DNA of 39,749 bases from a virus (taxonomy: Duplodnaviria; Heunggongvirae; Uroviricota; Caudoviricetes): IMG/VR virus record IMGVR_UViG_2541047827_000012. One strand, written 5' to 3'. The position numbers and the translations under genes are program-made. The notes beneath the pieces are model-generated. The model searched no databases. It saw nothing but the letters and a program-made list of their open reading frames with translations, and had not been told where the DNA came from. Of this stretch, positions 17,705-34,029 are shown in pieces; position 1 is the stretch's first letter, and each line of letters starts with the position of its first letter.

Positions 17705-20175
17705 CAGAATCCCCCAACAGTAAGGCGAGGAATAACGGCAAGAACAGACAGCGGCAACGGATCAAGCTGACGGATTTTTACACGTCCGTTTTTGCCCCAG
17801 TTACTGTCCAGTTTCACTTCTACTTTTCCGGTAGCATCATCAACAGGATCATCGTAGAACTCGAATTCACGCTGTGGATATTCGTACCATTTACCGCCGG
17901 GCGTAGTCGCCCAGATGCCGCGACTGGCATTCACAACCAGAGTAACGGAGGGGATCACCTGTTTTTTGTCCAGCAGCGTTTCCTGTCCGTTAATGTTGAT
18001 ATCCAGTGTTTCGAATTCAGCAGTTATTGGCAGGCCGATGTGCACTACAGCCCCCGGAGATTCCAGCGTGACGGCACCTCTGGAAACCACTTTCTGTGGT
18101 TCCACGTTCGCATCAGAGAGAATGTTTACGGTCTGGCCTTCAAGATGAGACAGGCCTCCAAATGTCCGGCGCGCCATCTGCCAGTTCGTGGTGGCCACAT
18201 TCCTGAGGGATGGCGGGACGTTCCTGTTAGCACGAACCACTACAGCGGTATTGCTGGTTACAGAAATAATGTCGCAACGTAATTCTTTTGACACTTCATC
18301 GCCAGTACCAGGATCAGTTCCGGTATAAGGGAACTGTAGTTGCGCGCCGACATCACTACTGGTGAAGTACGCACCACCAGAAACACTGATTGTATATTCT
18401 GCACGGTAATCCCATTCACCAGAACCACCAGTGATGGTCATCGTTCTGTCAGACGTATTTCTTCCATCATAGCTAAGGCCAGAATCAACAAAGAAAGCAT
18501 CTTCATCGCTGGTAAATAAACGGCTGGACAGTCGCTCGATGTATCTCACTGTTTGCCCGTTAACGGTTCGGTTAATGACGAAATACACCGCATCTTCATT
18601 GCCTTCGCTGATACTGCATGTGCTTTCATATTTTCCGGTACTGGACTGTGGTGCCCATGCAAAAACCTGTTGATCACGCAAATAGGTCATCACCAGTAAT
18701 TTACCGTCATCACGAATGCAGAAGGCGCTGGAGTAAGGGACAATAGAGAAGCACCAGTCAACAATGCTGTGCTTCTGAAAAAGATGATTGGCAAGGATAG
18801 TAAGGTCGTTCCCCTGATAGCCGTCAACATCGAATGAGTAGGCCAGATCACGGACAACACTGCCTTTCTCCTGTACGAACAGAGCAATATTCGCCACGGC
18901 AATTGGTGGGACATTGCTCGAGCCATTTGATCCCTGAGAGCTGAATGCAAATGATGATGGGGTTAACACTTTGTTCTGGTCGCCGGTGATGACGTACTCA
19001 CCTCCGGAAGTCAGCGCCACCAGCGAACCAACATCAATCAGGTGGCGGATCTCATTAACCTGACGCCCGGCATAGGTGTAGATAATTCTGTCGTCATCCT
19101 GCGTAGGATTGCTTTTGCCAAAATCCTTATAATCCCCGGTACGGCTGGCCCAGATAGTCTGAGGGAACGCAGTCGATGCGGCGAAGTAAAGACGCTGTTG
19201 ATAATAAACAACAGTGCCAGGATAACCATTAACACTGTTCCAGGCATATTTAGCCCATTTATAGCTGGCATTATCCTCGCCAACTACCTGCGAAGGGATA
19301 TAGGAAATCACCTCAGCAGTTGCAGTAGTGCCATTTACAGCAGTTATACGGGCAATGCCAAAACCACTGTGCAGATACTCCCACTCAATGCCAGTATCAT
19401 CATCACCGGATCCGCCCCAGCCATCCCATGATGTGCCTTCTGTATGCGAAGGGCGCAAAGTGCCTGTTTTGCCTGCTGTAACGGCTCGATAGTAGTTACT
19501 GTCTGCACGGCGAATATCGCCAATCGACGTACTCTTACTGGTTTCCCATACCGGCACTGAATCCACTGCAGGCTGTTCCAGATAGAACAATTTGCCTACC
19601 TGCTCCGCGCCAAAAATAGAGGCGCTTGCCGTTAACGTAATTGTCCCGGTGCTGGCGCTGGCATAAACCGTCACTGACTCGTCAATATTGATATCTTCAA
19701 ATGGCCCGTTCTTCGTTACCACATCAACCAGTTGCCAGTTGTCATGAGCATATCGGCGCAACTCTTTCGGCGGGTATGCCGGGTGAACCAGCGTAAGCAC
19801 GTCGGCGCTTTGCGTGAATTTAATTCGGAACAGATCGGCTTCAGTATATGGCGTGGCAATTTCATAAATAACATTGCTGCTGTTCAGCACCAACGCACCA
19901 TCTTTGATAACGCGCATGTACTGGTGTCCGAACTCCAGAGCATAGGTCTGAACCGTCGAGAACTGGAACGGGATCAGGCGGCATTTCCGATTTGGGTATT
20001 TGGCGGCACCGACAAAACGCGTACCAGGTCGATTCTCAACGCCGCCATACTGCCGCACGATAAAGTTATCGCACTTGCGCAATGCCACCTGGTACTTCGC
20101 CATGTCGATACGACCGTACAACGACGGTCCAATCTCACCACCGGCAAAGCTGGGCTGGATCCAACTGATAGCCAT
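17704..20175 (-). CDS. Tail tubular protein B-like (T7 gp12-like nozzle), 823 aa
   Basis: Size, position after the gp11-like gene and N-terminus MAISWIQPSFAGGEIGPSLYGRID resembling the T7 gp12 N-terminal pattern. Confidence 0.7.
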   Translation of the reverse strand: MAISWIQPSFAGGEIGPSLYGRIDMAKYQVALRKCDNFIVRQYGGVENRPGTRFVGAAKYPNRKCRLIPFQFSTVQTYALEFGHQYMRVIKDGALVLNSSNVIYEIATPYTEADLFRIKFTQSADVLTLVHPAYPPKELRRYAHDNWQLVDVVTKNGPFEDINIDESVTVYASASTGTITLTASASIFGAEQVGKLFYLEQPAVDSVPVWETSKSTSIGDIRRADSNYYRAVTAGKTGTLRPSHTEGTSWDGWGGSGDDDTGIEWEYLHSGFGIARITAVNGTTATAEVISYIPSQVVGEDNASYKWAKYAWNSVNGYPGTVVYYQQRLYFAASTAFPQTIWASRTGDYKDFGKSNPTQDDDRIIYTYAGRQVNEIRHLIDVGSLVALTSGGEYVITGDQNKVLTPSSFAFSSQGSNGSSNVPPIAVANIALFVQEKGSVVRDLAYSFDVDGYQGNDLTILANHLFQKHSIVDWCFSIVPYSSAFCIRDDGKLLVMTYLRDQQVFAWAPQSSTGKYESTCSISEGNEDAVYFVINRTVNGQTVRYIERLSSRLFTSDEDAFFVDSGLSYDGRNTSDRTMTITGGSGEWDYRAEYTISVSGGAYFTSSDVGAQLQFPYTGTDPGTGDEVSKELRCDIISVTSNTAVVVRANRNVPPSLRNVATTNWQMARRTFGGLSHLEGQTVNILSDANVEPQKVVSRGAVTLESPGAVVHIGLPITAEFETLDININGQETLLDKKQVIPSVTLVVNASRGIWATTPGGKWYEYPQREFEFYDDPVDDATGKVEVKLDSNWGKNGRVKIRQLDPLPLSVLAVIPRLTVGGF

Positions 20176-21499: not shown

Positions 21500-21937
21500 T
21501 TAACCAGTTACTTTTGAGCGGATCGGATACGGCGTATTGGCATCAACATCAAGACTGATACCAGCAGTGAATTCGCCAGCCGTTAGTGGGCCAGTTGCGA
21601 CGGAGTAGTTAACACGCAGATATCGCTGAACACCGGCAGGCACCTTTGCAGAAACAACTCGTTTACCTGCTGTCAGGGCGGTCTTTGCCAGTGCGCCACT
21701 ATCATAAATAGTGGTCCATGAGCTGTTATTCTCACTCGTCTGCAACTGGATGTTTACAGTTGCATCACCGCTTGCCGCGGCGGCTGTGTTAACCAGCGCC
21801 CAAAACTCAAGCGGGTAACCCACGCCGATATCACGACGTTTTCCGTCAATTGGACCGAGATCGATTACGTCAGTAGAAGCCGCGGTATTCGTAACCGCCT
21901 GAGCTTCGGAGAACATCAACAGTTTGTCGGTGATCAT
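21500..21937 (-). CDS. Putative capsid decoration/accessory protein (145 aa)
   Basis: Immediately downstream of the major capsid gene; Thr/Ala/Ser/Val-rich, beta-rich-looking sequence. Confidence 0.45.
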   Translation of the reverse strand: MITDKLLMFSEAQAVTNTAASTDVIDLGPIDGKRRDIGVGYPLEFWALVNTAAAASGDATVNIQLQTSENNSSWTTIYDSGALAKTALTAGKRVVSAKVPAGVQRYLRVNYSVATGPLTAGEFTAGISLDVDANTPYPIRSKVTG

Positions 21938-21988
21938 CTTCTTTCTCCATTAGTGGGTCTGTTACGACCCACAGGTTAATAACAGGCG

Positions 21989-22981
21989 TTACACCACGCG
22001 GGCTTCTGTTTCCAGAAGCGCATCAGTTTCACGGATTGGTACACCACGGAATGAAGTCCACCACTCGCCTTCTGTCTCTTTTACGCTGATCGCCAGAGAT
22101 GTTTTCTCCAGAGATTGCAGATCAAGAGCCTGGCCTACAGTGCGGTTCATGTAGAACACCGGGCGACCCATGCCACGATTTGGAATGCGATGCAGTGCTT
22201 TAACCATCAACTTCGCAATATTTGCGGCAGAGGAAGGTTCTGAAAGATTGCTGACATCGATGTTTGCAATGCGAACAACATAACGCCAGTCACGCAGAGC
22301 AAGTCCGTTGTCCCATTTGTAATGGGTACGGTAGCCTTCGTACTTGCCGCCATTAGCATCTTCCAGTGTCACCTGGCCTTTATCTTCCATCTGAATGCCA
22401 GCCTTCTGCCCTTTCGGGAAGATGCCATGCACGGTGTTTTCGCCCCACACCACTAACCAGATTGAGGTGTTATCTGTACCCGTGCCACCAGCATCAATGA
22501 TGTTCTGAGCATTACCTGCAGACAGGCTGGAATAGCGGGAGGACAGTCCCATAAACTGCTGAGGGTTAACGCTGGAATCACCATAAAACAGCGTCTGCGC
22601 CATCTGCTGATTCATCGCTTCAATAAATGCGCGGTCTTCAGACAGGCGGAATTCGGCGGTATTGCCGTTCAGATCAGCCAGTGACTTATCGACTTCAGCA
22701 TAGGTTTCCAGCATGCCAACGGAATCGGTTACCTGCACTGTGGTTGATTTGCTTGGCTGTACGCCATAGTTCAGCAAACGCCAGGTAGCTGAAGGTAAAC
22801 CAGAACGAATGGTGGTTCGGTGTCCGGTAGGAAGGTTCCCTTCGACAAAAGGCATATCCTGAAGGATCGGGTTAGTTTGACCGAGAAGCTCGATAATCTT
22901 ATCGACTTTCCCGTTTGGATCGACGCGCTTACCCCAGTCAGCCAGCGTTAGCGCAGTTAAGCCTTTAACAGCCATTGTCAT
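21989..22981 (-). CDS. Major capsid protein (330 aa)
   Basis: Position after the scaffold gene, size typical of HK97-fold capsid proteins, hairpin after stop. Confidence 0.7.
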   Translation of the reverse strand: MTMAVKGLTALTLADWGKRVDPNGKVDKIIELLGQTNPILQDMPFVEGNLPTGHRTTIRSGLPSATWRLLNYGVQPSKSTTVQVTDSVGMLETYAEVDKSLADLNGNTAEFRLSEDRAFIEAMNQQMAQTLFYGDSSVNPQQFMGLSSRYSSLSAGNAQNIIDAGGTGTDNTSIWLVVWGENTVHGIFPKGQKAGIQMEDKGQVTLEDANGGKYEGYRTHYKWDNGLALRDWRYVVRIANIDVSNLSEPSSAANIAKLMVKALHRIPNRGMGRPVFYMNRTVGQALDLQSLEKTSLAISVKETEGEWWTSFRGVPIRETDALLETEARVV

Positions 22982-22989
22982 TTCCTCTC

Positions 22990-23691
22990 TTATTTGCCAT
23001 AGAGCACTTCGGCCGCACTACGCTGGCCTTCATTACCACCGGTGACCATGCCATCTTCAGACATCGCCTTTCCGATTTTCACGAACGTTTTGACCAGATC
23101 AGGGTGATTACCCAGCCCGGTGGTGTTCAGATATTCTTTGAGTTCAGGTGTCCCGAACTGGTCAAGCGCACGCTGTGCGGCGCTAAGGTTAGAAATCAAC
23201 TTGTCGCCACCGATTTCTTTGTCAGCTTTTACATCAGCAGCCCACTGCTCGGTTGTTTTCTGCCAGGCTTCTGCCTGGCGCTGCTGCACACCTGCCAGAA
23301 TCTTCGGATAAGCATCAACCAGCTTTTGCGCTTGCTCGTTGGTCAGGTTAAGTTCTCGCGCCACCGGCTCGAATTCCTTCAACGCTTCTGTATCCAGCTC
23401 TACGCCTTCGGCAGCCTGAAACTCGTACTTCTCAGGCGCACCCTCTGGTTTATCGCCGTCCTTTTTTTCATCCTGCTTATCGTTTTCAGGCTTTTTGTCA
23501 TCAGCAGGTTTATCGCCATCAGCAACAGGTTGTGGCTTATCACCTTCCGATTGTGATGGATCACCAACTGGAGCAGGGTTATCACCTGCAGGCGCTGACG
23601 GTTCTGACGCAGCCGGAGCTGCTCCACCATCGACTGGTTGCTCATTGCAAAGACGGCGATACAGCAAACGCTCAAATAAATTCATGATCAC
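22990..23691 (-). CDS. Scaffolding protein (233 aa)
   Basis: Acidic Pro/Asp/Glu/Lys-rich N-terminus and helical C-terminus; between portal and capsid. Confidence 0.6.
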   Translation of the reverse strand: MIMNLFERLLYRRLCNEQPVDGGAAPAASEPSAPAGDNPAPVGDPSQSEGDKPQPVADGDKPADDKKPENDKQDEKKDGDKPEGAPEKYEFQAAEGVELDTEALKEFEPVARELNLTNEQAQKLVDAYPKILAGVQQRQAEAWQKTTEQWAADVKADKEIGGDKLISNLSAAQRALDQFGTPELKEYLNTTGLGNHPDLVKTFVKIGKAMSEDGMVTGGNEGQRSAAEVLYGK

Positions 23692-23984
23692 TCCTGTTCA
23701 CTGGCCTCTTTGGCCATCTTCAAATACTGTTCAGGGCAATGCGCCATAACGCGCTGAAACAGTTCCAGCGCCAGATTGCGTTGCCCCTCATTAAATGCCA
23801 TTGCCATAGCGTCCATCGGTGAGATAGCGGAAAACACACGGCCTTTCTCCAGCACCGACCAGACAACGCGACGCCCCTGTTCACTGCTCATGACAAAGCG
23901 AATGTCATCAATTTCACGCTGTGCCATGTCACGTTGCTTACGGGCGCTTTCTTCTTTCAGTTGATCATCTTCGTAATCTGTCAT
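23688..23984 (-). CDS. Hypothetical head protein (98 aa)
   Basis: Overlaps portal stop and scaffold start by 4 nt each. Confidence 0.5.
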   Translation of the reverse strand: MTDYEDDQLKEESARKQRDMAQREIDDIRFVMSSEQGRRVVWSVLEKGRVFSAISPMDAMAMAFNEGQRNLALELFQRVMAHCPEQYLKMAKEASEQE

Positions 23985-25660
23985 TGTGATTGCCCACCCT
24001 GACCACTAACTGCATTCGCCATAGCTGACAAAACACTCGGATCCGAAGTTTTAGCTTCGCTTAGCGTCTTGGCGCCCTGTGCCGCCGCCATTCCCATCGC
24101 CATCATTTGTTGCTGCTGTTGCTGCTGTGCCCGTTGCTGGCGAGCCTGCTCAACCTGTTCCTGCGGAACAATGACGGTTGGAGACACTCCGGACATATCA
24201 GCGAATGCATCGATCGCCTGATCAACGTTGAGTTTGTCGAGAGCTTCTGGTTTCGCTTGCGCAAGTTGACCAATGAAGTTGACCGTAGACGCCAGACTGG
24301 ACAGGCCGATAGACTTCTGCGCCTGAGCCATGACGGAAATGTATTCGACCTTCAGGGGCATACCTTCCATCGCGTCAGGCGGTGGCGGCAGCATGTTTTT
24401 ACGCACCATCATCGAGAAAGCGCGGTCAATGAGAGGATTAAGACATTCGTCGTTCAGACGCTCCAGAACCGGCCCCAACATCAGAAGTTTTTCTTCTTTC
24501 ATTTCGATCACCGCTTCAACAGGCATCGAGCGGGTATTGATGTTCTGCAACATCATGAACAGATCGACAAAGTAGGCGCTGTTAATGATTTGACGAGTGT
24601 CCTGAATGTCTGCCACCAAATCTGCTGTACTGGGGTTAACCAGATAAGCAGGCCTGAAACCATCCTGACCAGTAATCTGATCGATATACGTGATGTCGCC
24701 AGGAAGAAGGGAGGCACGCTGATTCTTGAGGGAAGTCGGAGCAACCATCGGCGGATTGGTGGCTTTATCAATCAACTGCGACTTGCGCTTCTGGAGAAGC
24801 TGCAATGCCTTAACAGGTCCAAGCGCCAGCATACCCGGGCATGATGATCCATAAACATCTTCGCCGTTAACTTCCCAGCGCGGAGCCATAATTGGAAACT
24901 CATCGAATCCGGACTCACGCAACAACTTGTCGTTATCGCCACCAACCTCGTAATAAACCGATTTGAATGGCTTGTTCTTGCTATCCAGCTTCGATGTATC
25001 GCGGTCAATGTTCGGGTAAACCGAATGCATCACTTCAATCCACTTCTCGTAGGTTCCGCTTTCCCACATGCTTTTTACGGATTCGCTGACGTTATTTAGC
25101 CCGAACTCCTGAACAAGCTGACGAACAGTCATAGAGAACTTGCGAAAACAGGTGTCCACACTGCCACGAGGTGAGTTAGCCAGGTAGTAACTGCCTATCG
25201 GGAATGGCATTGTGCGAATGATGTCCTCATCATCCTCCAGTACCGCCATTGCACCGGTGCTGTATGTGCCGAGGCTTCCGTATAACTGCGGCAGCGACTG
25301 ATAGAGATTCGACTTATTGAACATATCGTTCATGCGGTTCTGCACCGCCTCAAGCCACAACTTAACAGGGCCATAATCCATCATTTCAGGATCTGGCGTA
25401 GCCAGGCGAAACCACGGACGCGCGGGGCTTGTGATGCCTGACATCATGCCGCTGGCGAGAGTGCGCGCCGCCATAGTCCCGGTCGAATCAATAATGCGTG
25501 TATTGCGTCGATCGTTACGGTTGACCTCAGAAGTCAGAAAGCGGGAACCACGCGGGTTGATGTAATCACTCAACTCGCGCCAGTGCGGCTCGAACGACTG
25601 ACGCTCGCTTTCAAGTTGTGCGAACTGTTTGTTCAATCGCTCTTTAGTTGTTTCCGCCAT
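23981..25660 (-). CDS. Portal (head-to-tail connector) protein, 559 aa
   Basis: Size, position downstream of terminase, Gln/Ala-rich C-terminal tail. Confidence 0.75.
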   Translation of the reverse strand: MAETTKERLNKQFAQLESERQSFEPHWRELSDYINPRGSRFLTSEVNRNDRRNTRIIDSTGTMAARTLASGMMSGITSPARPWFRLATPDPEMMDYGPVKLWLEAVQNRMNDMFNKSNLYQSLPQLYGSLGTYSTGAMAVLEDDEDIIRTMPFPIGSYYLANSPRGSVDTCFRKFSMTVRQLVQEFGLNNVSESVKSMWESGTYEKWIEVMHSVYPNIDRDTSKLDSKNKPFKSVYYEVGGDNDKLLRESGFDEFPIMAPRWEVNGEDVYGSSCPGMLALGPVKALQLLQKRKSQLIDKATNPPMVAPTSLKNQRASLLPGDITYIDQITGQDGFRPAYLVNPSTADLVADIQDTRQIINSAYFVDLFMMLQNINTRSMPVEAVIEMKEEKLLMLGPVLERLNDECLNPLIDRAFSMMVRKNMLPPPPDAMEGMPLKVEYISVMAQAQKSIGLSSLASTVNFIGQLAQAKPEALDKLNVDQAIDAFADMSGVSPTVIVPQEQVEQARQQRAQQQQQQQMMAMGMAAAQGAKTLSEAKTSDPSVLSAMANAVSGQGGQSQ

Positions 25661-25674
25661 TTCAATGACTCCGG

Positions 25675-25881
25675 TTACTGACCAAGCAGCGTTTTACCGC
25701 TGGTATTAGCGGTTGATGTGTCGCCCTGAGAACCGGTAAGCAGCGTAGAACTACGACCAGCAGCAGCGCGACGGCGACGTGTTTCTTCGTCGCGGGCATC
25801 AACAACGGCGGCATCCTGCTCCTGTGGTGCTGCCTGAACTTCTGGTGTTGCAGGCACTGATGGTGAGCTACCCATGCACAT
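25675..25881 (-). CDS. Small hypothetical protein upstream of portal (68 aa)
   Basis: ORF in frame with plausible start; low-complexity Ala/Gln/Arg-rich; the alternative frame 25662..25901 looks less protein-like. Confidence 0.3.
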   Translation of the reverse strand: MCMGSSPSVPATPEVQAAPQEQDAAVVDARDEETRRRRAAAGRSSTLLTGSQGDTSTANTSGKTLLGQ

Positions 25882-25971
25882 ATCAATGACTCCGTACGCA
25901 ATTAAATTATTACCAATTTAACCACATATGATTTATTTATCGTAGGTGGTTGACATTTAACGCATAAATTA

Positions 25972-25986
25972 TTACCTTTCAGGTAA
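25972..25986. promoter_or_regulatory. Operator-like palindrome TTACCTTTCAGGTAA at head-operon promoter
   Basis: Identical 15-mer to the site at 6587; lies upstream (minus direction) of the 25881/portal operon next to a TTGACA hexamer. Confidence 0.55.
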
Positions 25987-26308
25987 GTAAAGAGTTCATT
26001 CCGGTTATTAACCTGACTGGCTTGTCGTTAAATTGAACAGATGGGGTGAGCTTTTATTTTGAGCAGTACGGTGTATGGCACATGCGTCGATAGCGGTCTG
26101 GATACGTTTAAGGGGCACCCTCCCTTGCTCGAGCAAACGAACCAGGTAGCCGGAATGTGCAAGTCGAGCGGTTTTATTCCGCGCACGGGGATTCACCATC
26201 CCGGCGATTCGGTGTGACGCCTCGGAAGAGACGAGGGTACAACGATGAGAGCATTTATGGAGCCGCGACAAAGTGTGGCGCCTTAACAGGCTAAGTGCTC
26301 TCAGCGTT

Positions 26309-26385
26309 GTGGCATTAGCTCAGTTGGACAGAGCAACCGCCTTCTAAGCGGTTGGTCGCAGGTTCGAATCCTGCATGCCACGCCA
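26309..26385 (+). tRNA. tRNA-Arg (anticodon TCT, reads AGA)
   Basis: Cloverleaf folded by hand: acceptor GTGGCAT/ATGCCAC, D-arm GCTC-AGTTGGACA-GAGC, anticodon stem ACCGC/GCGGT with loop CTTCTAA, T-arm GCAGG-TTCGAAT-CCTGC, discriminator G plus CCA. Confidence 0.9.
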
Positions 26386-26547
26386 GAATCACGCCTAAGG
26401 ACCGTGATGCCAGAAGTTCCAGGTGCTTGGCGGTGATGGTTTCCTTTGAAGGACTATCACCGCCCTTTTTACAGCAGGACGCCATTGCGATGACTTCATG
26501 CTGTAAACCAGTACAGCCACGGAAGGCATAACTCATTGCTTCCAGTT

Positions 26548-26570
26548 CGCCCGGTTCGCCGGGCATTTTT
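26548..26570 (+). terminator. Rho-independent terminator between tRNA and gp49-like gene
   Basis: GCCCGG-ttcg-CCGGGC hairpin followed by ATTTTTTT. Confidence 0.5.
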
Positions 26571-26583
26571 TTAAGGTGAGATT

Positions 26584-26922
26584 ATGAACAACCAGCAAAT
26601 CGAAAAAGAAATCGTTGAGAAAGGCAAAACGGCACCGCGCGTTACGCCAGGCCATATCGAAAGCATTATTCTTGCGGAAACGTACTTCACTGCTGCTGAT
26701 GGGGCTATTGCAACTGGCGATGACTATCACGACAGTTTGGCTCTGCTGACATTTTGTGTATTGACTCTACAAAATGGCTTCACCGTCACCGGAGAGAGTG
26801 CCTGTGCAAGCCCTGAAAACTTTGACGCAGAAATTGGTCGGAAGATTGCCCGGCAGAATGCTGTAAACAAAATCTGGATGCTCGAAGGTTACTTGCTGAA
26901 GCAGAAGCTAAGCGAGCAATAA
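26584..26922 (+). CDS. Phage Gp49-like protein (112 aa), function unknown
   Basis: SD AAGGTGA before ATG 26584; resembles the small gp49/Sf6 gp66-like phage protein family by recollection. Confidence 0.55.
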   Translation: MNNQQIEKEIVEKGKTAPRVTPGHIESIILAETYFTAADGAIATGDDYHDSLALLTFCVLTLQNGFTVTGESACASPENFDAEIGRKIARQNAVNKIWMLEGYLLKQKLSEQ

Positions 26923-26926
26923 CACC

Positions 26927-26938
26927 GTGACATGTCAC
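26927..26938. repeat. 12-bp palindrome GTGACATGTCAC (copy 2 of 3)
   Basis: Exact 12-mer, 5 bp after the gp49-like stop and 4 bp before the terminator hairpin. Confidence 0.8.
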
Positions 26939-26942
26939 AAAC

Positions 26943-26970
26943 AGCCAGCCGATGAGCTGGCTTTGTTTTA
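26943..26970 (+). terminator. Rho-independent terminator of the tRNA/gp49 moron
   Basis: AGCCAGC-cgatga-GCTGGCT hairpin followed by TTGTTTTA. Confidence 0.6.
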
Positions 26971-27012
26971 TCCTCATCAGAGGATATCAACGACATTATC
27001 CCCACCAGCGGA

Positions 27013-28488
27013 TTAAGCATACGGGTCATAATCTGTGATGGCCTTGCCTTGCTGGTTCTGCTGCCCAGGAATTCGCAGACGCTTCGACACAGGGAAAGCA
27101 AACGTCAGCAGTAGCGCATCGCCTTTACCAGGAGAACGCCCAAGCCGCTCCTTGATATCTTCCTTCGGTTCGATAACGATTTTACCGTCCACTCGAACTT
27201 TGTACTCTGCCGCAGACAGGTCGTCCGCTGTTTCCTGGTCATCCAGCATGCCGCCCAGCCTCAGCCATGTCTTGCATGAATTGAACATCTCCCCACGCTT
27301 GTTAAGCATCTGCGGGTCAGTAGACGCGCCACCGAACGGAACAAGTTGCCATGTACGACCCCAGCCATCACCGATTGACTTCAGACCAGTTCCGTAACCG
27401 AAGTCGATGAACACTGCGTCAGCCTGGTACTGGTCTTCAAAGTCAGCGATACGCTTCGCCATAATCAGATCGTCGGTAGTCTTGTTGCCAGTCCACAGCA
27501 CCTTACTGTGTAGCCCCTGCCGTAGGTATATCACCGCGTCATCAACGCCTGAATATGCCGGGTCAACACCGATTATCACCGGAGCATGCGCCACCTGCGC
27601 AGCGGTTACCACCCGTTTCATTGCCTCATCAGTAAGACCGGTAGGGATAAACTGCAATTCAGATGCATCAGGGAATATGCCGCGCACACGGATTTTAACG
27701 AAGTCGCTGTCTTCCCCGTAGTCATCAACCCATTTCTGCAACTGCTGTTTGTTAGTGCCTTCCACCGTCCGGCTGTCAATCTGCGCAGTTTTCCAGCGGT
27801 GTTTATATTTGCGGAAACATTCGCGGAAACGCCCGGTGTTACGTGTAGGGTTTCCGAACGCCACCCAGATAATCTCAGTGTCTTCGTCCGTAAGCGCACC
27901 CTCAGCAACTTCCCACACCAGATCCGCAATGTTCGACGCTTCATCGAATACCACGATGATGCGTTTGCGCTCGTTGTGTAGTCCGGCGAATGCCTCAGTG
28001 TTGTGCTCAGACCAGGGGATTGCGTCAGCTCGCCACCGCTTGTCGTGCCCAGGATCATTGCTGTACATCGCGGTAGCGGTACAGGTAAACCAGTCTTTCG
28101 TGATAGCAAGGTTCGACCACTTGATAATTTCCGGCCAGGTCTTCGTTCGTAGCTGGTTGTCGGTGTTGGCGGTCACCACGACCTTACAATCCTCGCAAGT
28201 GGACATGCCCCAGTTGATCAGCATTGAGATGAATGCGGATTTACCAATACCGTGACCAGAAGCGCGTGCCAGCATAAGCGGCTGATAGCGCGTCTCTGGA
28301 TTCTGCAGGTGATCACGTATCTCTCGGAACGCATCAGCCTGCCACTGACGTGGGCCGGTAGCATGTGCCAGTTCAGTCCCCTCTTCCCCCCACGGGAACG
28401 CATAGAGGGCATAGCCAAGCGGATCGTGAGTGAACCCTGCAATATCATCGATCAACTGCTCTTCAGGAGATAACGCTGTATCTGTCAC
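27013..28488 (-). CDS. Terminase large subunit
   Basis: P-loop ARASGHGIGKS and acidic nuclease-domain motifs; 491 aa; ATGA overlap with TerS stop. Confidence 0.9.
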   Translation of the reverse strand: MTDTALSPEEQLIDDIAGFTHDPLGYALYAFPWGEEGTELAHATGPRQWQADAFREIRDHLQNPETRYQPLMLARASGHGIGKSAFISMLINWGMSTCEDCKVVVTANTDNQLRTKTWPEIIKWSNLAITKDWFTCTATAMYSNDPGHDKRWRADAIPWSEHNTEAFAGLHNERKRIIVVFDEASNIADLVWEVAEGALTDEDTEIIWVAFGNPTRNTGRFRECFRKYKHRWKTAQIDSRTVEGTNKQQLQKWVDDYGEDSDFVKIRVRGIFPDASELQFIPTGLTDEAMKRVVTAAQVAHAPVIIGVDPAYSGVDDAVIYLRQGLHSKVLWTGNKTTDDLIMAKRIADFEDQYQADAVFIDFGYGTGLKSIGDGWGRTWQLVPFGGASTDPQMLNKRGEMFNSCKTWLRLGGMLDDQETADDLSAAEYKVRVDGKIVIEPKEDIKERLGRSPGKGDALLLTFAFPVSKRLRIPGQQNQQGKAITDYDPYA

Positions 28489-29081
28489 TGATTACCATCC
28501 TGACGTTCTTTGAGTCGCTTCCTGGCTGCTGCTATGCGATCAGCAATTGTCACATTCACATTAACATCCAGACGTTCTTTGAACGCGTTGACATCAACAT
28601 GCTTACCAATCAGCTCAAGGTTCTTCACCTTGTCAGGCCATTTAATTTTTTTGAGGATTGTCTCTATCGAATCCTCGTTCATGTTCATGATGGTCGATGA
28701 CAGATCAAAGCCACTAAGCGTAGTGCGCCAGATTTTCGGCCACTCACGGATTGGTTTAAGGCTCCCATCGTCGTTGAGGATGTCGATCACGTCCATCTGG
28801 TCGATCTCCACCAGGCGCATGAGAACGTAATCAGCACTGACGCGCATTCGTTTGTTGCGCTCCTCCATCAACTCGGCAATCCGTTTTTGAATGCGTTCAT
28901 CGCGCATCATGACACTGGCTTTAACTGCCGCTGTATTTGGGGAGAATCCTGCGTTAATCGCTGCCTGAGTCTGGTTTTCAGGCGTTTTGATGTATGACTG
29001 GCAATAAGCCTCCTGCATTGCTGTTAGTGGCTTAAATTGCGTTGATTTGCGTTTATAGGTTTTAGGTTCAGCAGGCATCAT
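28485..29081 (-). CDS. Terminase small subunit
   Basis: Start set at internal ATG 29081 because the track N-terminal extension runs through upstream direct repeats; typical TerS size and position. Confidence 0.65.
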   Translation of the reverse strand: MMPAEPKTYKRKSTQFKPLTAMQEAYCQSYIKTPENQTQAAINAGFSPNTAAVKASVMMRDERIQKRIAELMEERNKRMRVSADYVLMRLVEIDQMDVIDILNDDGSLKPIREWPKIWRTTLSGFDLSSTIMNMNEDSIETILKKIKWPDKVKNLELIGKHVDVNAFKERLDVNVNVTIADRIAAARKRLKERQDGNQ

Positions 29082-29088
29082 AACCACC

Positions 29089-29120
29089 GTGGTAATAGTT
29101 ACCGTTGTGGTAATAGTACC
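29089..29120. repeat. Direct repeat GTGGTAATAGT(T)ACC x2 upstream of TerS
   Basis: Two copies at 29089-29103 and 29107-29120; each contains GGTAA-N3-(T)TACC, the operator half-sites in inverted order. Confidence 0.6.
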
Positions 29121-29122
29121 AT

Positions 29123-29150
29123 GCAAAATAAAGCCGCCATAGTTGGCGGC
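29123..29150 (-). terminator. Rho-independent terminator upstream of the TerS/late operon
   Basis: GCCGCC-aactat-GGCGGC hairpin followed on the minus strand by TTTATTTTGC; 42 nt before the TerS start. Confidence 0.55.
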
Positions 29151-29191
29151 AGTATTCAAAACCCATCAAATTCATCATGCATAATCTACTC

Positions 29192-29203
29192 GTGACATGT
29201 CAC
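29192..29203. repeat. 12-bp palindrome GTGACATGTCAC (copy 3 of 3)
   Basis: Exact 12-mer overlapping the stop codon of 29200..29541, about 40 nt upstream (minus direction) of the terminator at 29123-29150. Confidence 0.8.
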
Positions 29204-29541
29204 ACTATTAATTTCGTTTCATGCCAGCCTTTAGTCACCCAGCATTGCGAGTCACCATTGCACGGGCATGAATTAACTGGAACTCTCTCGCCGCACTTAC
29301 CGCAACGTTTTCTGCTGATCGATTTTATACGCCCGCGCACGCGTGCATCATCCTGGCGGATCAGTAACGCTATATACTCACCAAATTCGTAAGGTGCACG
29401 CCCGGGGCGACGCGTGGCACAGTTACGCTCCAGCATTTCAATTTCCTGAGCATCAAGCACAATCTCCAGCTTACGCACACCAGATGCAGCTTGTCTGGCT
29501 CTCTGAGCGGCTTTGCGCTCTGCTGCTGATTTAGCCATCAA
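29200..29541 (-). CDS. Small Arg-rich protein with C-terminal Cys cluster (putative zinc-finger regulator)
   Basis: 113 aa; C-terminus CGKCGERVPVNSCPCNGDSQC (C-x2-C...C-x-C); last gene before the late-operon terminator. Confidence 0.5.
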   Translation of the reverse strand: MMAKSAAERKAAQRARQAASGVRKLEIVLDAQEIEMLERNCATRRPGRAPYEFGEYIALLIRQDDARVRGRIKSISRKRCGKCGERVPVNSCPCNGDSQCWVTKGWHETKLIV

Positions 29542-29818
29542 TATTCACCTTTATCGCGAACACCTTTACCGGTTTATCACCGAAGTGCGGATGTGTGATT
29601 GTCTTGATTTCATACCCTTCATACGGGACGTCAATTCTTCGACTGAAGTCGTCGCGCTTCGGATATCCCTTTGTGATAATCAGGAGGTCATACTCCCTGA
29701 ACATAATTCGCTTATTCCAGTAGTCATTACACAGGCGATACTCCTCGGTTTTCTCTCCGCGCTTCATCGCGTCAAAGTATTCGCCATTAACGGCCAACTG
29801 TAGATCAGCCACCTGCAA
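29531..29818 (-). CDS. ASCH/DUF3850-like small phage protein
   Basis: Pattern VNGEYFDAMKRGEKTEEYRL...YDLLIITKGYP resembles the DUF3850/ASCH fold family by recollection. Confidence 0.45.
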   Translation of the reverse strand: MQVADLQLAVNGEYFDAMKRGEKTEEYRLCNDYWNKRIMFREYDLLIITKGYPKRDDFSRRIDVPYEGYEIKTITHPHFGDKPVKVFAIKVNIDG

Positions 29819-30332
29819 CCTCCTCCCGTCCTACTGGCGGAAGCATATAAAACCAGTGGGTCGCGTCTCTGCAAACTGTCTTAAAGAGCGAGGCGGGCAC
29901 GAAGCGGTAGCGCATATCTTCATGGTTGGTAGGTGTGAACGCGCACACGCGCTTTTCGCTAGACGGATCCGGCATTTCTTCGAAGCGGGAGATCCAACTA
30001 TCCGGAGTTACCGGAGAGTTGCCATTTATATCGAAGTTTGGCTCTGCGTCCTGAACCAGGAGGATGTAACCATTCTTGGCAGTATCAAGTTCTAACGCCT
30101 CGGTGACGGTACCGAAATAGCGATTACCTAAATCCGCATCACAAGTGCTTACATCAATGGAAACCTCCATGCCTTCGATTAATTCTGGCAAGTTGTAAGT
30201 TTGGCTTACAGGTTCTGCTCCCAGTGATGCCAGTGCAATTCGTGCCAGTTCCATTTGTTCGCCACGAGTAAGCCCGTTTTCAAGCGGATTTTTAATGAAT
30301 AATTCGATACGTTCTTTGGTAATAGTGGTCAT
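29805..30332 (-). CDS. Hypothetical phage protein (175 aa)
   Basis: SD AAGGTGA before ATG 30332. Confidence 0.55.
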   Translation of the reverse strand: MTTITKERIELFIKNPLENGLTRGEQMELARIALASLGAEPVSQTYNLPELIEGMEVSIDVSTCDADLGNRYFGTVTEALELDTAKNGYILLVQDAEPNFDINGNSPVTPDSWISRFEEMPDPSSEKRVCAFTPTNHEDMRYRFVPASLFKTVCRDATHWFYMLPPVGREEVAGG

Positions 30333-30334
30333 AG

Positions 30335-30526
30335 CTATTTCACCTTAATCTCAACATTTCGCAGCTTTAGCTCTACTGGCAGGTCTGACTTTCCTGTTAA
30401 TGCTAATGCGAGATTTTCTGGGGTAATGAGAGCAGTTATTGCTTTCCCCATTGCCAGACGAATAATTATTCGTATTTCGCGATCGTCACATGCTCCTGGT
30501 CGAACGATTGATATTTGTCCGTCCAT
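30335..30526 (-). CDS. Hypothetical small protein (63 aa)
   Basis: Start set at ATG 30526 (SD AAGGAG; 1-nt gap to upstream stop) rather than track start 30577. Confidence 0.4.
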   Translation of the reverse strand: MDGQISIVRPGACDDREIRIIIRLAMGKAITALITPENLALALTGKSDLPVELKLRNVEIKVK

Positions 30527-30527
30527 C

Positions 30528-31181
30528 TCACTCTCCTTTGATGCGAATGCCAGCGGCGCGGATTGCAGCGATGACATCAGAAACTTTGTATGCCATTACC
30601 GTTTGGTAATCATCGTGAAAATCTGTTCGATGAAGCATGCTGCTACGTTCCGGGAGCAGTATTTCCCGCTCCTCCAGTTCTGCTATGCGCTTACTTCCAT
30701 CCGCGATTACTCCCTCGTAATATTCACGCTGCTCGTTGAGTCTTGATTTTGCTGCTTCAAGCTCAACGCGCAGCTTCCCTACCGTTAGCGCAATTTCCTC
30801 GTTCTCCTGGTCGCGGGATTTGATGTATTGCTGGTTCCTTTCCCGTTCATCCAGTAGTGCCAAAGCAACCTTTGGATTAAAGGCAGCAATAAATTCAGCG
30901 TTGTTTTTCAGAACGTGTTGCGCAATCGCCTGACTACTTAGTCGGACCTCATAACCACGTGCGCCACGGTTGATAACCTTGATTTCGTCCATAGCGCCAG
31001 ACTTCAGCCCCGCATTCTCCGCCGCCAGCGCATTAGCACGCGCCAGTTGCACTTCCAGTTGCGTTGCCAAATCGCTGATCAGCTTTGCCACACTGCGCAT
31101 ATCAACGGCACCACATTCTGCTTTCAGTTCCGAAGCCATCTCATGCCCGGCGGCAACTAACCCTTTGATATTACTTTCCAT
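30528..31181 (-). CDS. Hypothetical coiled-coil protein (217 aa)
   Basis: Long predicted coiled-coil segments; early/nin-like region. Confidence 0.5.
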   Translation of the reverse strand: MESNIKGLVAAGHEMASELKAECGAVDMRSVAKLISDLATQLEVQLARANALAAENAGLKSGAMDEIKVINRGARGYEVRLSSQAIAQHVLKNNAEFIAAFNPKVALALLDERERNQQYIKSRDQENEEIALTVGKLRVELEAAKSRLNEQREYYEGVIADGSKRIAELEEREILLPERSSMLHRTDFHDDYQTVMAYKVSDVIAAIRAAGIRIKGE

Positions 31182-31242
31182 CTTTACCCTCGCTTATCCA
31201 CATAACTTATTGATTACATTGATAACTAAAAAGATCGTCGAT

Positions 31243-31587
31243 TCAGAACTCTTCGATGTTCCAGCCACCACCTGCTTTCTTTGGTTTAACCGTTACCCCG
31301 ATGATTCGGAACGGATACTGATCTGCGGCGACTTTGGTTTTCACCCTGGCGTCGTCGGTCCAGAAACCTTTCACTTCGTGCAGTTCCATCTCGCCGGTGA
31401 CGAGCATCACAGCGAAATCGGGCGTATAGAACGTGTTGTCAGCTAACCGCAGCTTGATACCCTCGAATCGATACCAGGCGATTTCCCCTGCACGTTTACG
31501 CTGCTCAAGGTGCTGGCAATACGCAGATTCTGTTTTGTTCATCTGGCCTGTTTTGAGTCGACCAAGAGCCTGTATCTGTTTTCTCAT
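31243..31587 (-). CDS. Putative PD-(D/E)XK-fold nuclease (114 aa)
   Basis: Motif YTPDFAVMLVTGEMELHEVKG resembles the D...E-x-K nuclease core; SD GAGG lies within the palindromic site at 31591-31605. Confidence 0.45.
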   Translation of the reverse strand: MRKQIQALGRLKTGQMNKTESAYCQHLEQRKRAGEIAWYRFEGIKLRLADNTFYTPDFAVMLVTGEMELHEVKGFWTDDARVKTKVAADQYPFRIIGVTVKPKKAGGGWNIEEF

Positions 31588-31590
31588 GAT

Positions 31591-31605
31591 TTACCTCTGA
31601 GGTAA
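31591..31605. promoter_or_regulatory. Operator-like palindrome TTACCTCTGAGGTAA
   Basis: Perfect TTACC-N5-GGTAA, 4 bp upstream of the nuclease start codon and overlapping its RBS. Confidence 0.55.
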
Positions 31606-31652
31606 TTAAAAACCACATAAGACACTAAATCAATAGAATTTAGAATATTTTG

Positions 31653-31667
31653 TTACCCAATAGGTAA
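31653..31667. promoter_or_regulatory. Operator-like palindrome TTACCCAATAGGTAA
   Basis: Perfect TTACC-N5-GGTAA in the 117-bp gap between the P-like and nuclease genes. Confidence 0.55.
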
Positions 31668-31704
31668 CTATCGAGGCGTAAAAAAATGCGCTATCGCGCT
31701 GGTA

Positions 31705-32505
31705 TTACTTGATAAATCCTGCCGCCTTTCCCCGCCTGTATTCCTCCATCAGCCACTGCGCCGGTGTTATTCCCCCAAGGGTGGCGGCGTTAGGCATGCA
31801 CCCGAAACTTCGCCCTGGCGGGTGGTAAACGTCTCTCCCTGTGTCCGGAGGTGTACTCATGGGTTCTGGCTTTGCCTGTATGCTGATCACCGGATCGGGT
31901 ATCTGCTGTCCGGAAGCCACCTTTTTCGCCCAATCATCGAGCAGCCTGCGCGCGTGTTTCTCAACCTCAATCTCGCTAAGCTGGCGCTGATACATTGCAC
32001 GGCGGGTATCACATACGACCCAGTACATAACCGGATGTCGCCACGGGAATCTTTCGGGACCGCCAGGATATAAACTTTTTTCCTTGCTGTACCGGTGAAA
32101 CTCCGCCATCACATCGTCAATGGTGACGCCAAGAACCATCTTGCTGTCTTTGCACCACTTGATGAATTGCCCTGGCGACGGCCAGAACGGAGATTCACTG
32201 GCGCGGGCGTGGCGCATACCAGCAGAAACCTGTTCACGGGTTCGGATCCCCCCTTCGGCAAACGCAGCAATCCACTGCTGTTTTGCAGCAACTTCCTGCT
32301 CTGGCGTCTTCAGGTTGGTTACCACTGCCGCCGGAAACAGTTGTTTCAGCTGTTTAAAAAGGGCATCAACAAGCCTCTCTGCTGACATGTTCACCACATT
32401 GTCATTGTTGACGTATTGATGCTCATAACCTGACATGCGAGAAAGGGCTTCTCCGTCACGGTTTTGTATCGCGGTAAAAACGTTGTTCACAAGAAATCCT
32501 CCCAT
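31705..32505 (-). CDS. Replication protein P-like (DnaB helicase loader)
   Basis: Central region ...QQWIAAFAEGGIRTREQVSAGMRHARASESPFWPSPGQFIKWCKD... closely parallels lambda P as I recall it. Confidence 0.75.
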   Translation of the reverse strand: MGGFLVNNVFTAIQNRDGEALSRMSGYEHQYVNNDNVVNMSAERLVDALFKQLKQLFPAAVVTNLKTPEQEVAAKQQWIAAFAEGGIRTREQVSAGMRHARASESPFWPSPGQFIKWCKDSKMVLGVTIDDVMAEFHRYSKEKSLYPGGPERFPWRHPVMYWVVCDTRRAMYQRQLSEIEVEKHARRLLDDWAKKVASGQQIPDPVISIQAKPEPMSTPPDTGRDVYHPPGRSFGCMPNAATLGGITPAQWLMEEYRRGKAAGFIK

Positions 32506-33278
32506 GCTTCAGGGCTGTTCCAGTGCGGAACGTTGTTATCAGGTAATGTTGATTGCTTCTGTCTGCTAATCTGCAGCCGCCTTGCCAGCTTCTGCTCCCA
32601 CTGTGCCTGATGGTATGCCTTACCCTCAGCCATCCAGTAAATTCTGAACTCTGCAAGTTCCTGTGCCGTTGGCAGACTGTCCAGGTAGATCCCCTGCAAT
32701 GAGCTTTTCCGAAGAAAGTCATCTGATGGCTGCCATTGTTCATGCATGACAAATTTGCCTAATTGCCCTGGCCCACCAGGAGGAACAAAGTTATTCATCA
32801 CGGCGTTGTTTGCGCCGGGGTCATGAGGCACAGAATCCCCGCTTTTTGTCCTGCTCTCCCTCTCTTGGTTAAATGACTGGTTATATGACTGGTTCTGGAT
32901 CCCGTTTTTGGGATCATTCAACATCCCGTTTTTGGGTATATTCCCTTTTTCGGTAACATTACCGTTTTCGGGTTCATTGCCCCCCTCTCGGTTGCCTTTA
33001 ATGTTCCCGTTTTTGGTTATATTAAGAGAGAAAACCCGCACTCTTTTTGTCGCTCCCTTTCTCTCCCCGGTATCTGAAATAAGCCCCATTTTCATGAGCG
33101 ATATAAGTCCGGCCTGCACGGTTTTTTTATTCAGGCAAGTGTCTTTAACGAGGCGTTCTATGCTGGGGTAGCAGAGGTTATATTCATCGGCTCTGTCAGC
33201 CATCGAGAGCAGTATGAGCTTTAATGACGAGCTACCTGGATCTGTCTCCCAGGCCCAATCTGTTGCATGTCTGCTCAT
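32487..33278 (-). CDS. Replication initiator (lambda O-like / DnaD-like HTH), contains the origin
   Basis: N-terminal HTH-like segment, low-complexity Asn/Gly/Lys linker encoded by iteron DNA, conserved C-terminal domain; overlaps P-like gene start. Confidence 0.65.
   Translation of the reverse strand: MSRHATDWAWETDPGSSSLKLILLSMADRADEYNLCYPSIERLVKDTCLNKKTVQAGLISLMKMGLISDTGERKGATKRVRVFSLNITKNGNIKGNREGGNEPENGNVTEKGNIPKNGMLNDPKNGIQNQSYNQSFNQERESRTKSGDSVPHDPGANNAVMNNFVPPGGPGQLGKFVMHEQWQPSDDFLRKSSLQGIYLDSLPTAQELAEFRIYWMAEGKAYHQAQWEQKLARRLQISRQKQSTLPDNNVPHWNSPEAWEDFL
32866..33020. repeat. Putative replication origin: five iteron-like repeats (CCCGTTTTTGG) plus tandem ATGACTGGTT repeats
   Basis: Iteron cores at 32901-32911, 32925-32935, 32943-32953 (CCCTTTTTCGG), 32961-32971 (ACCGTTTTCGG), 33006-33016; tandem ATGACTGGTT at 32873-32882 and 32885-32894; all inside the O-like linker region as in lambda ori. 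Confidence 0.6.
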
Positions 33279-33293
33279 GATTAATCTCCGCTA

Positions 33294-33494
33294 TCAGCTT
33301 GAATGTTGTGGGGAGGAATTAATCATGATCTGCTTAATCTCTGCCCTGATACGACGGTTTGATTCCATGGTGCACTCAACACAGTGTCCGTTGTAAACCC
33401 AGCGTTCACTGTCATGTCCGTGCTTACATGTTTTTCCGGTGTAGTAGCGTTTAAGTCCGCGCTTTGCGGCATCAATACGTGTAATGATTTCCAT
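33294..33494 (-). CDS. Small Cys/His-containing protein (66 aa), hypothetical
   Basis: Start set at ATG 33494 (SD-like AGGG); motif C-K-H-G-H...C-V-E-C; the two upstream in-frame ATGs lack RBS. Confidence 0.4.
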   Translation of the reverse strand: MEIITRIDAAKRGLKRYYTGKTCKHGHDSERWVYNGHCVECTMESNRRIRAEIKQIMINSSPQHSS

Positions 33495-33574
33495 GGTAAG
33501 CCCTGTTATTAGTATTGGGATTACGGTCATTTTGTGCTGACACAAAAAAAATATCAACCAGATTTGGTTTTTTA

Positions 33575-33589
33575 TTACCTTTGAGGTAC
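33575..33589. promoter_or_regulatory. Operator-like site TTACCTTTGAGGTAC (one mismatch)
   Basis: TTACC-N5-GGTAc between the Cro-like terminator and the next early gene. Confidence 0.4.
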
Positions 33590-33593
33590 GAAT

Positions 33594-33622
33594 AGATATG
33601 AAAAGACCGCCGGGTGGCGGTC
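33594..33622 (-). terminator. Rho-independent terminator after the Cro-like gene (tR1-like position)
   Basis: GACCGCC-ggg? hairpin (GACCGCC/GGCGGTC at 33605-33622) followed on the minus strand by TTTTCAT. Confidence 0.5.
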
Positions 33623-33644
33623 TACAGAGGGTTGTAGCTGGATA

Positions 33645-33875: not shown

Positions 33876-33911
33876 AGCTATTGCCTGATATTTATTTCAG
33901 ATAATAAATAT

Positions 33912-33974
33912 TCACCCATAAGGTAACAAAAATCAAGGATAGTTACCTATGAGGTGCATTTACCTGTTGGGTAA
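33912..33974. promoter_or_regulatory. Three clustered operator sites between the Cro-like and repressor genes (OR-like)
   Basis: 33912-33926 tCACC-N5-GGTAA, 33943-33957 TTACC-N5-GGTgc, 33960-33974 TTACC-N5-GGTAA; centre spacings 31 and 17 bp. Confidence 0.6.
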
Positions 33975-34029
33975 TATTGCTTTAAATTGAATCATCTACT
34001 GATTCATATATGAGGCGATTTTCCAGAAA

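Follow-up and report, generated by a model that had tools for sequence, protein, structure and literature searches.

Several kinds of phage RNA element offer a frame for the locus described here. The put elements of phage HK022 suppress termination in cis, dependent on the zinc-binding domain of the RNA polymerase beta' subunit. The C4 RNA of P1 and P7 and the CI RNA of P4 are regulatory immunity RNAs that RNase P excises from a longer early transcript. Species 1 and 2 of phage T4 are stable, structured non-tRNA RNAs of ~120–140 nt, encoded within the transfer RNA (tRNA) gene cluster and confined to T4-like phages. GOLLD and ROOL are complex conserved prophage RNAs, often located by tRNA genes, mainly in Firmicutes and environmental phages. 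Here we consider the interval between the terminase gene TerL and the portal operon in a stretch of 39,749 nt (IMG/VR record IMGVR_UViG_2541047827_000012, hereafter the window), which is a phiV10/epsilon15-like (Uetakevirus) Escherichia coli prophage; 1.5 kb around the locus are 95–98% identical to phiV10, vB_EcoP_ZX5 and many E. coli chromosomes. As judged by comparative sequence analysis, the ~320 bp that a first-pass annotation of this DNA had left unassigned encode a folded RNA of ~240 nt (26068–26308) with six helices and a pseudoknot, a member of a widespread, well-supported and apparently undescribed family.

A folded RNA between TerL and the portal operon

The first-pass annotation had described 25990–26308 as non-coding DNA with several hairpins, and this is borne out: we see no convincing open reading frame (ORF), and the stretch folds with z = -2.7. 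The parts of the RNA are as follows.

25990–26055, plus strand: long 5' hairpin domain found in the epsilon15-like lineage only (consensus fold of four lineages: 18 pairs, 2 with compensatory changes)
26068–26308, plus strand: conserved structured RNA core (alignment of 110 distinct sequences, pair counts)
26069–26076 with 26082–26089, plus strand: helix P1
26098–26101 with 26142–26145, plus strand: helix P2, interior variable
26145–26163, plus strand: near-invariant junction GGUAGCCGGAAUGUGCAAG
~26168–26182, plus strand: helix P3, a variable hairpin
26188–26192 with 26198–26202, plus strand: helix P4
26194–26197 with 26211–26214, plus strand: pseudoknot
26220–26224 with 26232–26236, plus strand: helix P5, loop GAAGAGA
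26238–26255 with 26294–26311, plus strand: helix P6, enclosing a variable insert; the final pairs of the helix extend over the first 3 nt of the tRNA

An alignment of Uetakevirus sequences already displays near-identical blocks separated by hairpins of variable length with compensatory substitutions. More than 150 loci were gathered with an invariant 19-mer, GGTAGCCGGAATGTGCAAG, and an independent motif in helix P1 was used against ascertainment bias; the loci fished by the P1 motif carry a single substitution in the 19-mer in only ~6 of 120 cases. Fold statistics were computed on the 110 distinct sequences for P1, P2/P2a, P4, the pseudoknot of the P4 loop, P5 and a contact between the P1 loop and the junction. 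In the proposed fold 93.6% of the cells are paired, compared to 26–39% when the partners are slid; 17 of 34 pairs change on both sides, compared to 6–10 of 34; and the covariation score is 0.295 as opposed to about 0.05. None of 500 shuffles matched the observed values. The pseudoknot pair 26194–26214, for example, changes from C-G to A-U in 25 sequences. For P6, 25 distinct strand pairs gave 94% pairing and showed compensatory changes at seven positions; the insert that this helix encloses ranges from 4 to 280 nt.

The strand can be assigned from the pairs themselves. G-U and U-G pairs are abundant (U-G in 108 of 110 sequences at one P1 pair), and since these would become C-A or A-C mismatches on the minus strand, the RNA is read from the plus strand, an assignment that agrees with its co-orientation with adjacent tRNAs, with cI/PL and with ban in other phages. 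Covariation beyond the controls, a defined strand and independent genomic contexts together support the proposal of a new structured-RNA family. When 25600–27100 was compared with Rfam 15 (4227 models, E <= 10), the tRNA alone was matched, and a scan of 25985–26312 by itself gave a single meaningless match of 8.6 bits and no family; Rfam applied to the whole window at gathering thresholds gave the RNA no match either. A literature search, which included the literal conserved sequences, found no description of the RNA; the subscription-only epsilon15 and phiV10 genome papers were outside its reach. A preprint on the Pas small RNA turned out to be unrelated. A short ORF that would begin at the P6 3' end (GUGAAUG...) was also considered and rejected: the translations are alike for 7 residues only, their lengths range from 3 to 58 amino acids (aa), and the conserved part is the RNA hairpin. 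The 5' long hairpin domain is absent from SPN1S, and the GenBank record of epsilon15 marks this hairpin as 'RNaseIII, mRNA processing' on the opposite strand.

Distribution, genomic contexts and likeness to described elements

A sensitive BLAST search with the unassigned stretch alone returned 92 phage records from unrelated groups. Carriers include lambdoid phages (cdtI, Stx2c- and Stx2a-converting phages, 2H10 and mEp390), P1, P7, D6, SJ46 and RCS47, together with Klebsiella and Enterobacter phages, and the RNA is found in 1840 of 5426 complete E. coli genomes, about a third. RefSeq annotation over the RNA is present in none of the listed genomes. The 19-nt junction is almost unchanged from E. 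coli to Erwinia, and among GTDB representatives the 19-mer is confined to Enterobacterales, bar two doubtful contigs of metagenome-assembled genomes labelled Oscillospiraceae and Bacillota in which it occurs exactly; these two are likely mis-binned enterobacterial phage contigs instead of signs of a wider host range.

Genomic context was counted over 132 loci. In 62 of them a cI-type repressor gene immediately precedes the RNA and points the same way, and in cdtI the order is cI terminator, a strong PL-like promoter (11/12 consensus), the RNA and then all of the early-left genes. Another 41 loci represent the Uetakevirus slot. The P1-like arrangement, seen in 17, places the core ~19 nt after tRNA-Ile(CAU) and before ban, within the C1-controlled ban operon, where in P1 the RNA is grouped with tRNAs and a dicF-like region. 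A tRNA-Arg(UCU) is joined exactly to the 3' end of P6, with the GUG shared, in 32 loci, and no tRNA is nearby in 83; where tRNAs abut the RNA, the two are always co-oriented. Early, repressor-controlled expression is indicated in all three contexts, by the operator over the -10 element here, by the PL-like promoter of cdtI and by the C1 operators of Pban in P1. A protein gene common to the three contexts was found nowhere near the RNA, the flanks being unrelated.

What follows the RNA is more uniform. A strong hairpin with a U-tract comes after it in 98 of 128 distinct loci, typically ~135 nt past P6, and the Uetakevirus and lambdoid versions have in common a hairpin like the terminator T1 described below, followed by UUUUUACA, as well as a ACGCCUNAG motif. 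Of 174 loci spanning an immunity region, 173 hold a single copy, with no second copy in the PR operon; the exception is one viral contig with tandem copies at 3989–4153 and 4781–4958, ~800 nt apart on the same strand. The CPS-53 prophage of E. coli K-12 has the same early-left genes (yfdP-yfdQ-yfdR) and lacks the RNA, so there is no K-12 annotation to borrow. In epsilon15 itself P2 to P6, the tRNA and the 5' arm of T1 are missing (~2049–2110 of the retrieved epsilon15 stretch). A 13-bp repeat, TTCCCTTGATGCT, stands at both deletion end-points in SPN1S, in the P2 loop and in the T1 loop, which points to a repeat-mediated deletion as the origin of the loss.

Among described elements, HK022 put comes close in several respects. 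Like put, this RNA is non-coding and would be the first product of a repressor-controlled early promoter, its lambdoid position just after PL is that of putL, terminators lie downstream in both, and no dedicated phage protein is found near this RNA. It differs in that it occurs in single copy, is often fused to a tRNA and is also present in P1 and in podoviruses, and any such activity of it is a prediction. A search of HK022 24000–38000 with the family profile (nhmmer) gave no match, and membership of the put family fails on size, architecture, sequence and copy number. The RNA also takes the early-left leader position of lambda nut. In one common variant P6 is followed by a small GC hairpin (GCGCAGGCUGAUGCGC), and the 3' strand of P6 often reads UGCUCU, so that the two look superficially like boxB and boxA. 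We rejected the boxA reading: the string varies with compensatory changes as a strand of helix P6, and is therefore part of a helix and not a conserved single-stranded Nus-factor site. Nor is an N gene annotated in any of the four lambdoid carriers examined (cdtI, PhiR40_1, mEp390 and Stx2a_1447).

As for the immunity RNAs, the Rfam model of C4 (RF01695) fails at this locus and the RNA is three times larger than C4; its recurrence amid unrelated flanks argues against a phage-specific antisense target. The window has a true C4 elsewhere, since Rfam matches it at 7114–7200 (plus strand, 79.5 bits), next to isrK at 7018–7094 (plus strand, 74 bits); a further match is STnc490 at 1687–1810 (minus strand, 146 bits). 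The isrK–C4 pair resembles an immI (c4-icd-ant) immunity module of the P1/P7 type, and thus the prophage and P1 have two RNA modules in common, C4 and the structured RNA. T4 species 1 and 2 resemble this RNA by description only, in being co-transcribed with phage tRNAs and presumably freed by tRNA-processing enzymes, whereas this RNA mostly occurs without a tRNA and in temperate phages. GOLLD and ROOL are 2–3 times larger, their Rfam models give no match, and this RNA, unlike them, is confined to Enterobacterales.

Promoter, operator, tRNA, terminators and cargo gene

The RNA is part of a plus-strand unit set among minus-strand structural genes: TerS and TerL occupy 29159–27013, and leftwards from 25881 follow a 68-aa ORF and the portal, protease and capsid genes. 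Its surroundings are listed here.

25951–25979, plus strand: putative sigma70-type promoter of the unit (-35 TTGACA at 25951–25956, 17-nt spacer, -10 TACCTT at 25974–25979)
25972–25986, no strand assigned: operator TTACCTTTCAGGTAA, one of 10 exact TTACC-N5-GGTAA copies dispersed in the prophage
25917–25930, minus strand: candidate element of a leftward portal-operon promoter (minus strand reads CATATGTGGTTAAAT; TG-n-TTAAAT, extended -10-like)
26309–26385, plus strand: tRNA-Arg, anticodon UCU (reads AGA), CCA encoded (ARAGORN, Rfam; in 76 of 77 TerL-anchored relatives)
26386–26470, plus strand: spacer with a conserved ACGCCUAAGG motif, then T1 (stem 26429–26464, 14–15 bp, then CUUUUU)
26465–26572, plus strand: second structured leader, then T2 (hairpins 26468–26507 and 26521–26543; T2 26549–26564, 6 GC pairs, U7; z = -3.0)
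26584–26922, plus strand: cargo gene, Gp49 family, 112 aa (PF13876); position hypervariable among relatives with TerL at least 99% identical
26943–26962, no strand assigned: T3, a hairpin on both strands, between the convergent cargo gene and TerL
27013–28488, minus strand: TerL (ORF list)
25675–25881, minus strand: 68-aa ORF (ORF list)
23981–25660, minus strand: portal (ORF list)

The first-pass annotation rightly placed the tRNA and the gp49-like gene opposite to their structural neighbours, and took them for a moron that splits the terminase–portal operon. Comparison with relatives turns the second point around. We retrieved 80 viral contigs by TerL alone (TerL at least 99% identical), of which 77 could be scored: the plus-strand slot and the structured RNA are present in all 77 and the tRNA in 76, and every genus member fetched (phiV10, epsilon15, SPN1S, Tyrion, a Klebsiella relative, TL-2011b and phiv142-3) has the slot. 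TerL directly beside the portal operon was found in none of these relatives. The slot is ancestral and fixed in the genus; the different genes found after T2 account by themselves for its range of lengths (820 to 1982 bp). That gene is where the moron idea keeps some truth, being variable, replaced or absent among the 77 loci. A moron would be expected to have its own promoter, free of phage repression and active in the lysogen, and here the sole candidate promoter is overlapped at its -10 by an operator. The account as an insertion is thus largely wrong, and the RNA and tRNA are best read as fixed parts of the genome, with the cargo as an accessory gene in a hot spot.

The operator at 25972 is as the first-pass annotation had it, one of 10 exact TTACC-N5-GGTAA palindromes in the window (6587, 6967, 8009, 25972, 29099, 31591, 31653, 33960, 34672 and 34734), compared to ~0.04 expected by chance (window length / 4^10). 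Allowing up to two mismatches raises the count to 38, compared to 11.3 +/- 3.7 in shuffles. Counts so far beyond chance make this a real, dispersed operator family, which brings to mind the C1 operators scattered through P1; in epsilon15 the GenBank record labels the homologous site 'repressor, lysogeny', with an IHF site adjacent. Near-copies lie at 29081, 33575 and 33912, and the two sites at 29081 and 29099 fall inside the annotated 5' end of the TerS ORF. The earlier assignment of the 25972 copy to the portal promoter does not hold up as well: the site overlaps the -10/+1 region of the plus-strand promoter, so that the RNA-tRNA-gp49 unit would be its most direct target. The unit would therefore be under repressor control, with expression on derepression and not in the lysogen. 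The copy at 34734 is laid out similarly, with TTGACA directly upstream on the plus strand.

The plus-strand promoter itself is putative, with a predicted start at ~25986–25988. Its block is almost unchanging across the genus, and a simple promoter scanner did not flag it because the -10 element fits at only 3 of 6 positions. With terminators present in the slot, a separate promoter for the portal operon is plausible, as had been proposed, and the element at 25917–25930, which lies in a block invariant across the genus, may play this leftward role; within it TGgTTAAAT, at ~25917–25925, resembles an extended -10. The string AACCACATAWG occurs exactly three times (6547–6557, 25920–25930 and 31611–31621), each time 40–52 bp from an operator, and may belong to leftward promoters or serve as a site for an activator or for IHF.

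The tRNA gene call is confirmed. ARAGORN calls the anticodon tct (position 35) on the plus strand, and the Rfam tRNA model (RF00005) scores 73.3 bits against a gathering threshold of 29 (E = 2.4e-14); the acceptor stem GUGGCAU/AUGCCAC, the G discriminator and the encoded CCA are readable, the gene ending in ...CACG-CCA. A rationale in the rare AGA codon is only partly borne out. E. coli uses AGA at ~2 per 1000 codons, and the ORFs of the window at 7.2 per 1000. The capsid, portal and terminase genes (21500–29087), however, contain none at all, and the codon is frequent in a 729-aa gene at 4293–6482 (13 AGA, 5 AGG), in the tail/injection genes at 9903–20175 (21 AGA) and in some early genes. On this distribution, the genes that the phage tRNA helps to translate would be those of the accessory, tail and early sets, not the head genes. 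In a megablast of the region, 64 Synechococcus phage records were matched, presumably within the 80–90% identity band of 103 records; presumably these are their tRNA-Arg genes, an unexpectedly close tRNA likeness across very different phages. Antisense to the tRNA and T1, or over the structured RNA, databases hold 'hypothetical proteins' (PhiV10p04, a RefSeq WP_ entry, Tyrion gp54 and mEp390 gp36), with such calls at 26315–26566 (minus strand) of the window and at 3716–3967, 3188–3349 and 3511–3753 of the relatives' stretches; these are probably spurious gene calls.

As the first-pass annotation stated, the plus strand carries terminator-like hairpins, though three of them (T1, T2 and T3) instead of two. 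The phiV10 record labels T3 a rho-independent terminator on the TerL strand. The second leader and T2 are kept in all Uetakevirus relatives, including epsilon15 and Tyrion. The first hairpin of the second leader (26468–26507) can form by pairing of UGCUGUAAA with the T1 U-tract and 3' flank (UUUACAGCA), which lie 30 nt upstream. The ribosome-binding site of the cargo gene follows the T2 U-tract directly, and neither reading of the sequence nor a scan found a promoter between T1/T2 and the cargo gene.

The identity of this gene was given correctly: PF13876 (Phage_gp49_66) matches residues 20–109 with 116.6 bits against a cut-off of 27 (E = 7.2e-34), and RefSeq names its homologue 'Gp49 family protein'. 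The tRNA-Arg and the Gp49-family gene are real but ordinary, being already annotated in records of the phiV10 type. In the 77 relatives the position behind the terminators holds any of more than six alternative cargos or none: Gp49 variants with conserved ends and a hypervariable middle, unrelated proteins of 113, 115 and 139–140 aa, a coiled-coil/membrane-like protein of 246 aa, or nothing. An ORF scan found no cargo of at least 40 aa in 12 of the 77, and at least 4 of the 77 have the minimal 820-bp slot with the RNA and tRNA only, as in phiv142-3. The gene is swappable accessory cargo, and its position looks like an arms-race (defence or anti-defence) hot spot.

Possible roles of the RNA

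We tentatively favour a reading, with a probability that stays short of even, in which 25951–26962 constitutes a fixed, repressor-controlled early 'RNA unit' whose structured RNA is a discrete, stable molecule, excised by tRNA-processing enzymes and acting in trans. Release of the operator at 25972 by the repressor would let the plus-strand promoter fire and yield a transcript containing, in order, the lineage-specific hairpin, the ~240-nt pseudoknotted RNA, tRNA-Arg(UCU) and T1; some transcripts would pass the second leader and T2 into the swappable cargo gene and stop at T3. Cleavage by RNase P 5' of G26309 would free the tRNA and at the same time set the 3' end of the structured RNA, and in P1 the 3' processing of tRNA-Ile(CAU) would set its 5' end. 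The tRNA would add AGA decoding for the AGA-rich tail, accessory and early genes, and the near-invariant junction and loops might act in trans by binding a conserved component of the host in the opening minutes of the lytic cycle.

This reading draws support from the exact abutment to a tRNA in two independent ways, always co-oriented (the 32 loci with tRNA-Arg and the 17 P1-like loci), from the strong terminator that the module carries with it in Uetakeviruses and lambdoid phages, from its clustering with other RNA genes in P1, from the persistence of the unit where the cargo gene is missing, and from the movement of the module among unrelated phages with no common protein gene. The covarying plus-strand fold, the near-invariant junction and the signs of early repressor control in all three contexts also speak for it. 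Four observations weigh against it. The RNA is always promoter-proximal or intra-operon and co-oriented with downstream genes, which is more typical of a cis-acting leader. The examined lambdoid carriers with no annotated N gene place it exactly at the nutL/N (putL) position. Two strong terminators precede the cargo genes, for which no separate promoter is evident, and some read-through mechanism is therefore needed. Lastly, epsilon15 is viable despite the loss of P2–P6 and the tRNA, so that in the laboratory, at least, the RNA is not essential.

A possible, somewhat less probable, reading is that of a cis-acting, protein-independent processive antiterminator like HK022 put, in which the nascent fold would bind RNA polymerase and allow read-through of T1 and T2 or of the terminator after PL. 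The location behind cI in 62 of 132 loci and ahead of all early-left genes in cdtI, the four carriers with no N gene annotated, the strong intrinsic terminator that separates the RNA from the first gene in 98 of the 128 distinct loci, the Gp49-family ribosome-binding site following the T2 U-tract in a promoter-free interval, and the epsilon15 deletion that took the RNA core together with the 5' arm of T1 all fit such a role. The activity of put does not depend on the RNA staying tethered to the polymerase (PMC9378689), so that separation of the RNA from the terminators by a tRNA and an RNase P cut would be tolerable. Against it stand the absence of sequence similarity to the HK022 put regions, the ~240 nt and six helices compared to ~70 nt and two stems in put, and the single copy per phage with none in the PR operon, where HK022 has both putL and putR. 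Moreover, T3 would be no barrier to a terminator-proof polymerase, which in Uetakeviruses would go on to transcribe the terminase genes in antisense; P1 has ~2.3 kb between Pban and the RNA and only a weak terminator-like hairpin ahead of ban; and the unit is retained in relatives that have no cargo gene to reach. Taken to its full extent, the idea would make 26068–26308 the first example of a second class of RNA-only processive antiterminators, one with a structure unrelated to that of put, replacing N/nut in N-less lambdoid prophages (Stx2c- and Cdt-converting ones included) and recruited by P1 (before ban) and by epsilon15/phiV10-like phages, a proposal that we regard as conceivable and still rather doubtful.

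Considerably less probable is an early-leader sensor resembling a riboswitch, which would bind a host metabolite or tRNA, set the passage of the downstream terminator and so feed a lysis–lysogeny or timing decision. The compact pseudoknotted fold with its near-invariant junction nucleotides and the 5' leader position upstream of a terminator are what one would expect of such a sensor. The terminator, however, begins ~120–135 nt past P6 with room for a whole tRNA in between, no alternative pairing of a terminator or ribosome-binding-site helix with an aptamer helix is evident, the P1 copy lies within an operon in which ban is not preceded by a strong terminator, and no known Rfam riboswitch class is matched.

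Two readings have very little in their favour. The 'RNaseIII, mRNA processing' feature of the epsilon15 record on the complementary strand, and late transcription that may cross the region if T3 is leaky, could suggest a minus-strand RNase III processing or stability element of a late terminase-to-portal read-through mRNA, and this is most improbable considering the mismatches that the many G-U pairs would produce on that strand and the co-orientation of the module with tRNAs, cI, PL or ban in phages where a late operon is nowhere near. Equally improbable is the insertion of a tRNA-plus-gp49 moron with the 320 bp as an associated spacer of incidental hairpins: the variable, at times missing, cargo gene and the inverted unit with terminators on its flanks suit it, but not the presence of slot and RNA in every relative examined (the tRNA with one exception), the RNA-level selection on the 320 bp that unrelated phages have in common, or the operator borne by the promoter.

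Irrespective of which reading is correct, the RNA has passed between three groups of temperate phages that are not related to each other, among them the model phage P1 and toxin-converting lambdoid phages, and it would stand under direct repressor control at the start of lytic transcription. Whatever it binds, it probably serves a general function in early infection. Should it prove to be an antiterminator, this would explain early-left expression in N-less lambdoid phages, and a second class of such RNAs would then control early genes in the prophages of about one third of E. coli genomes.

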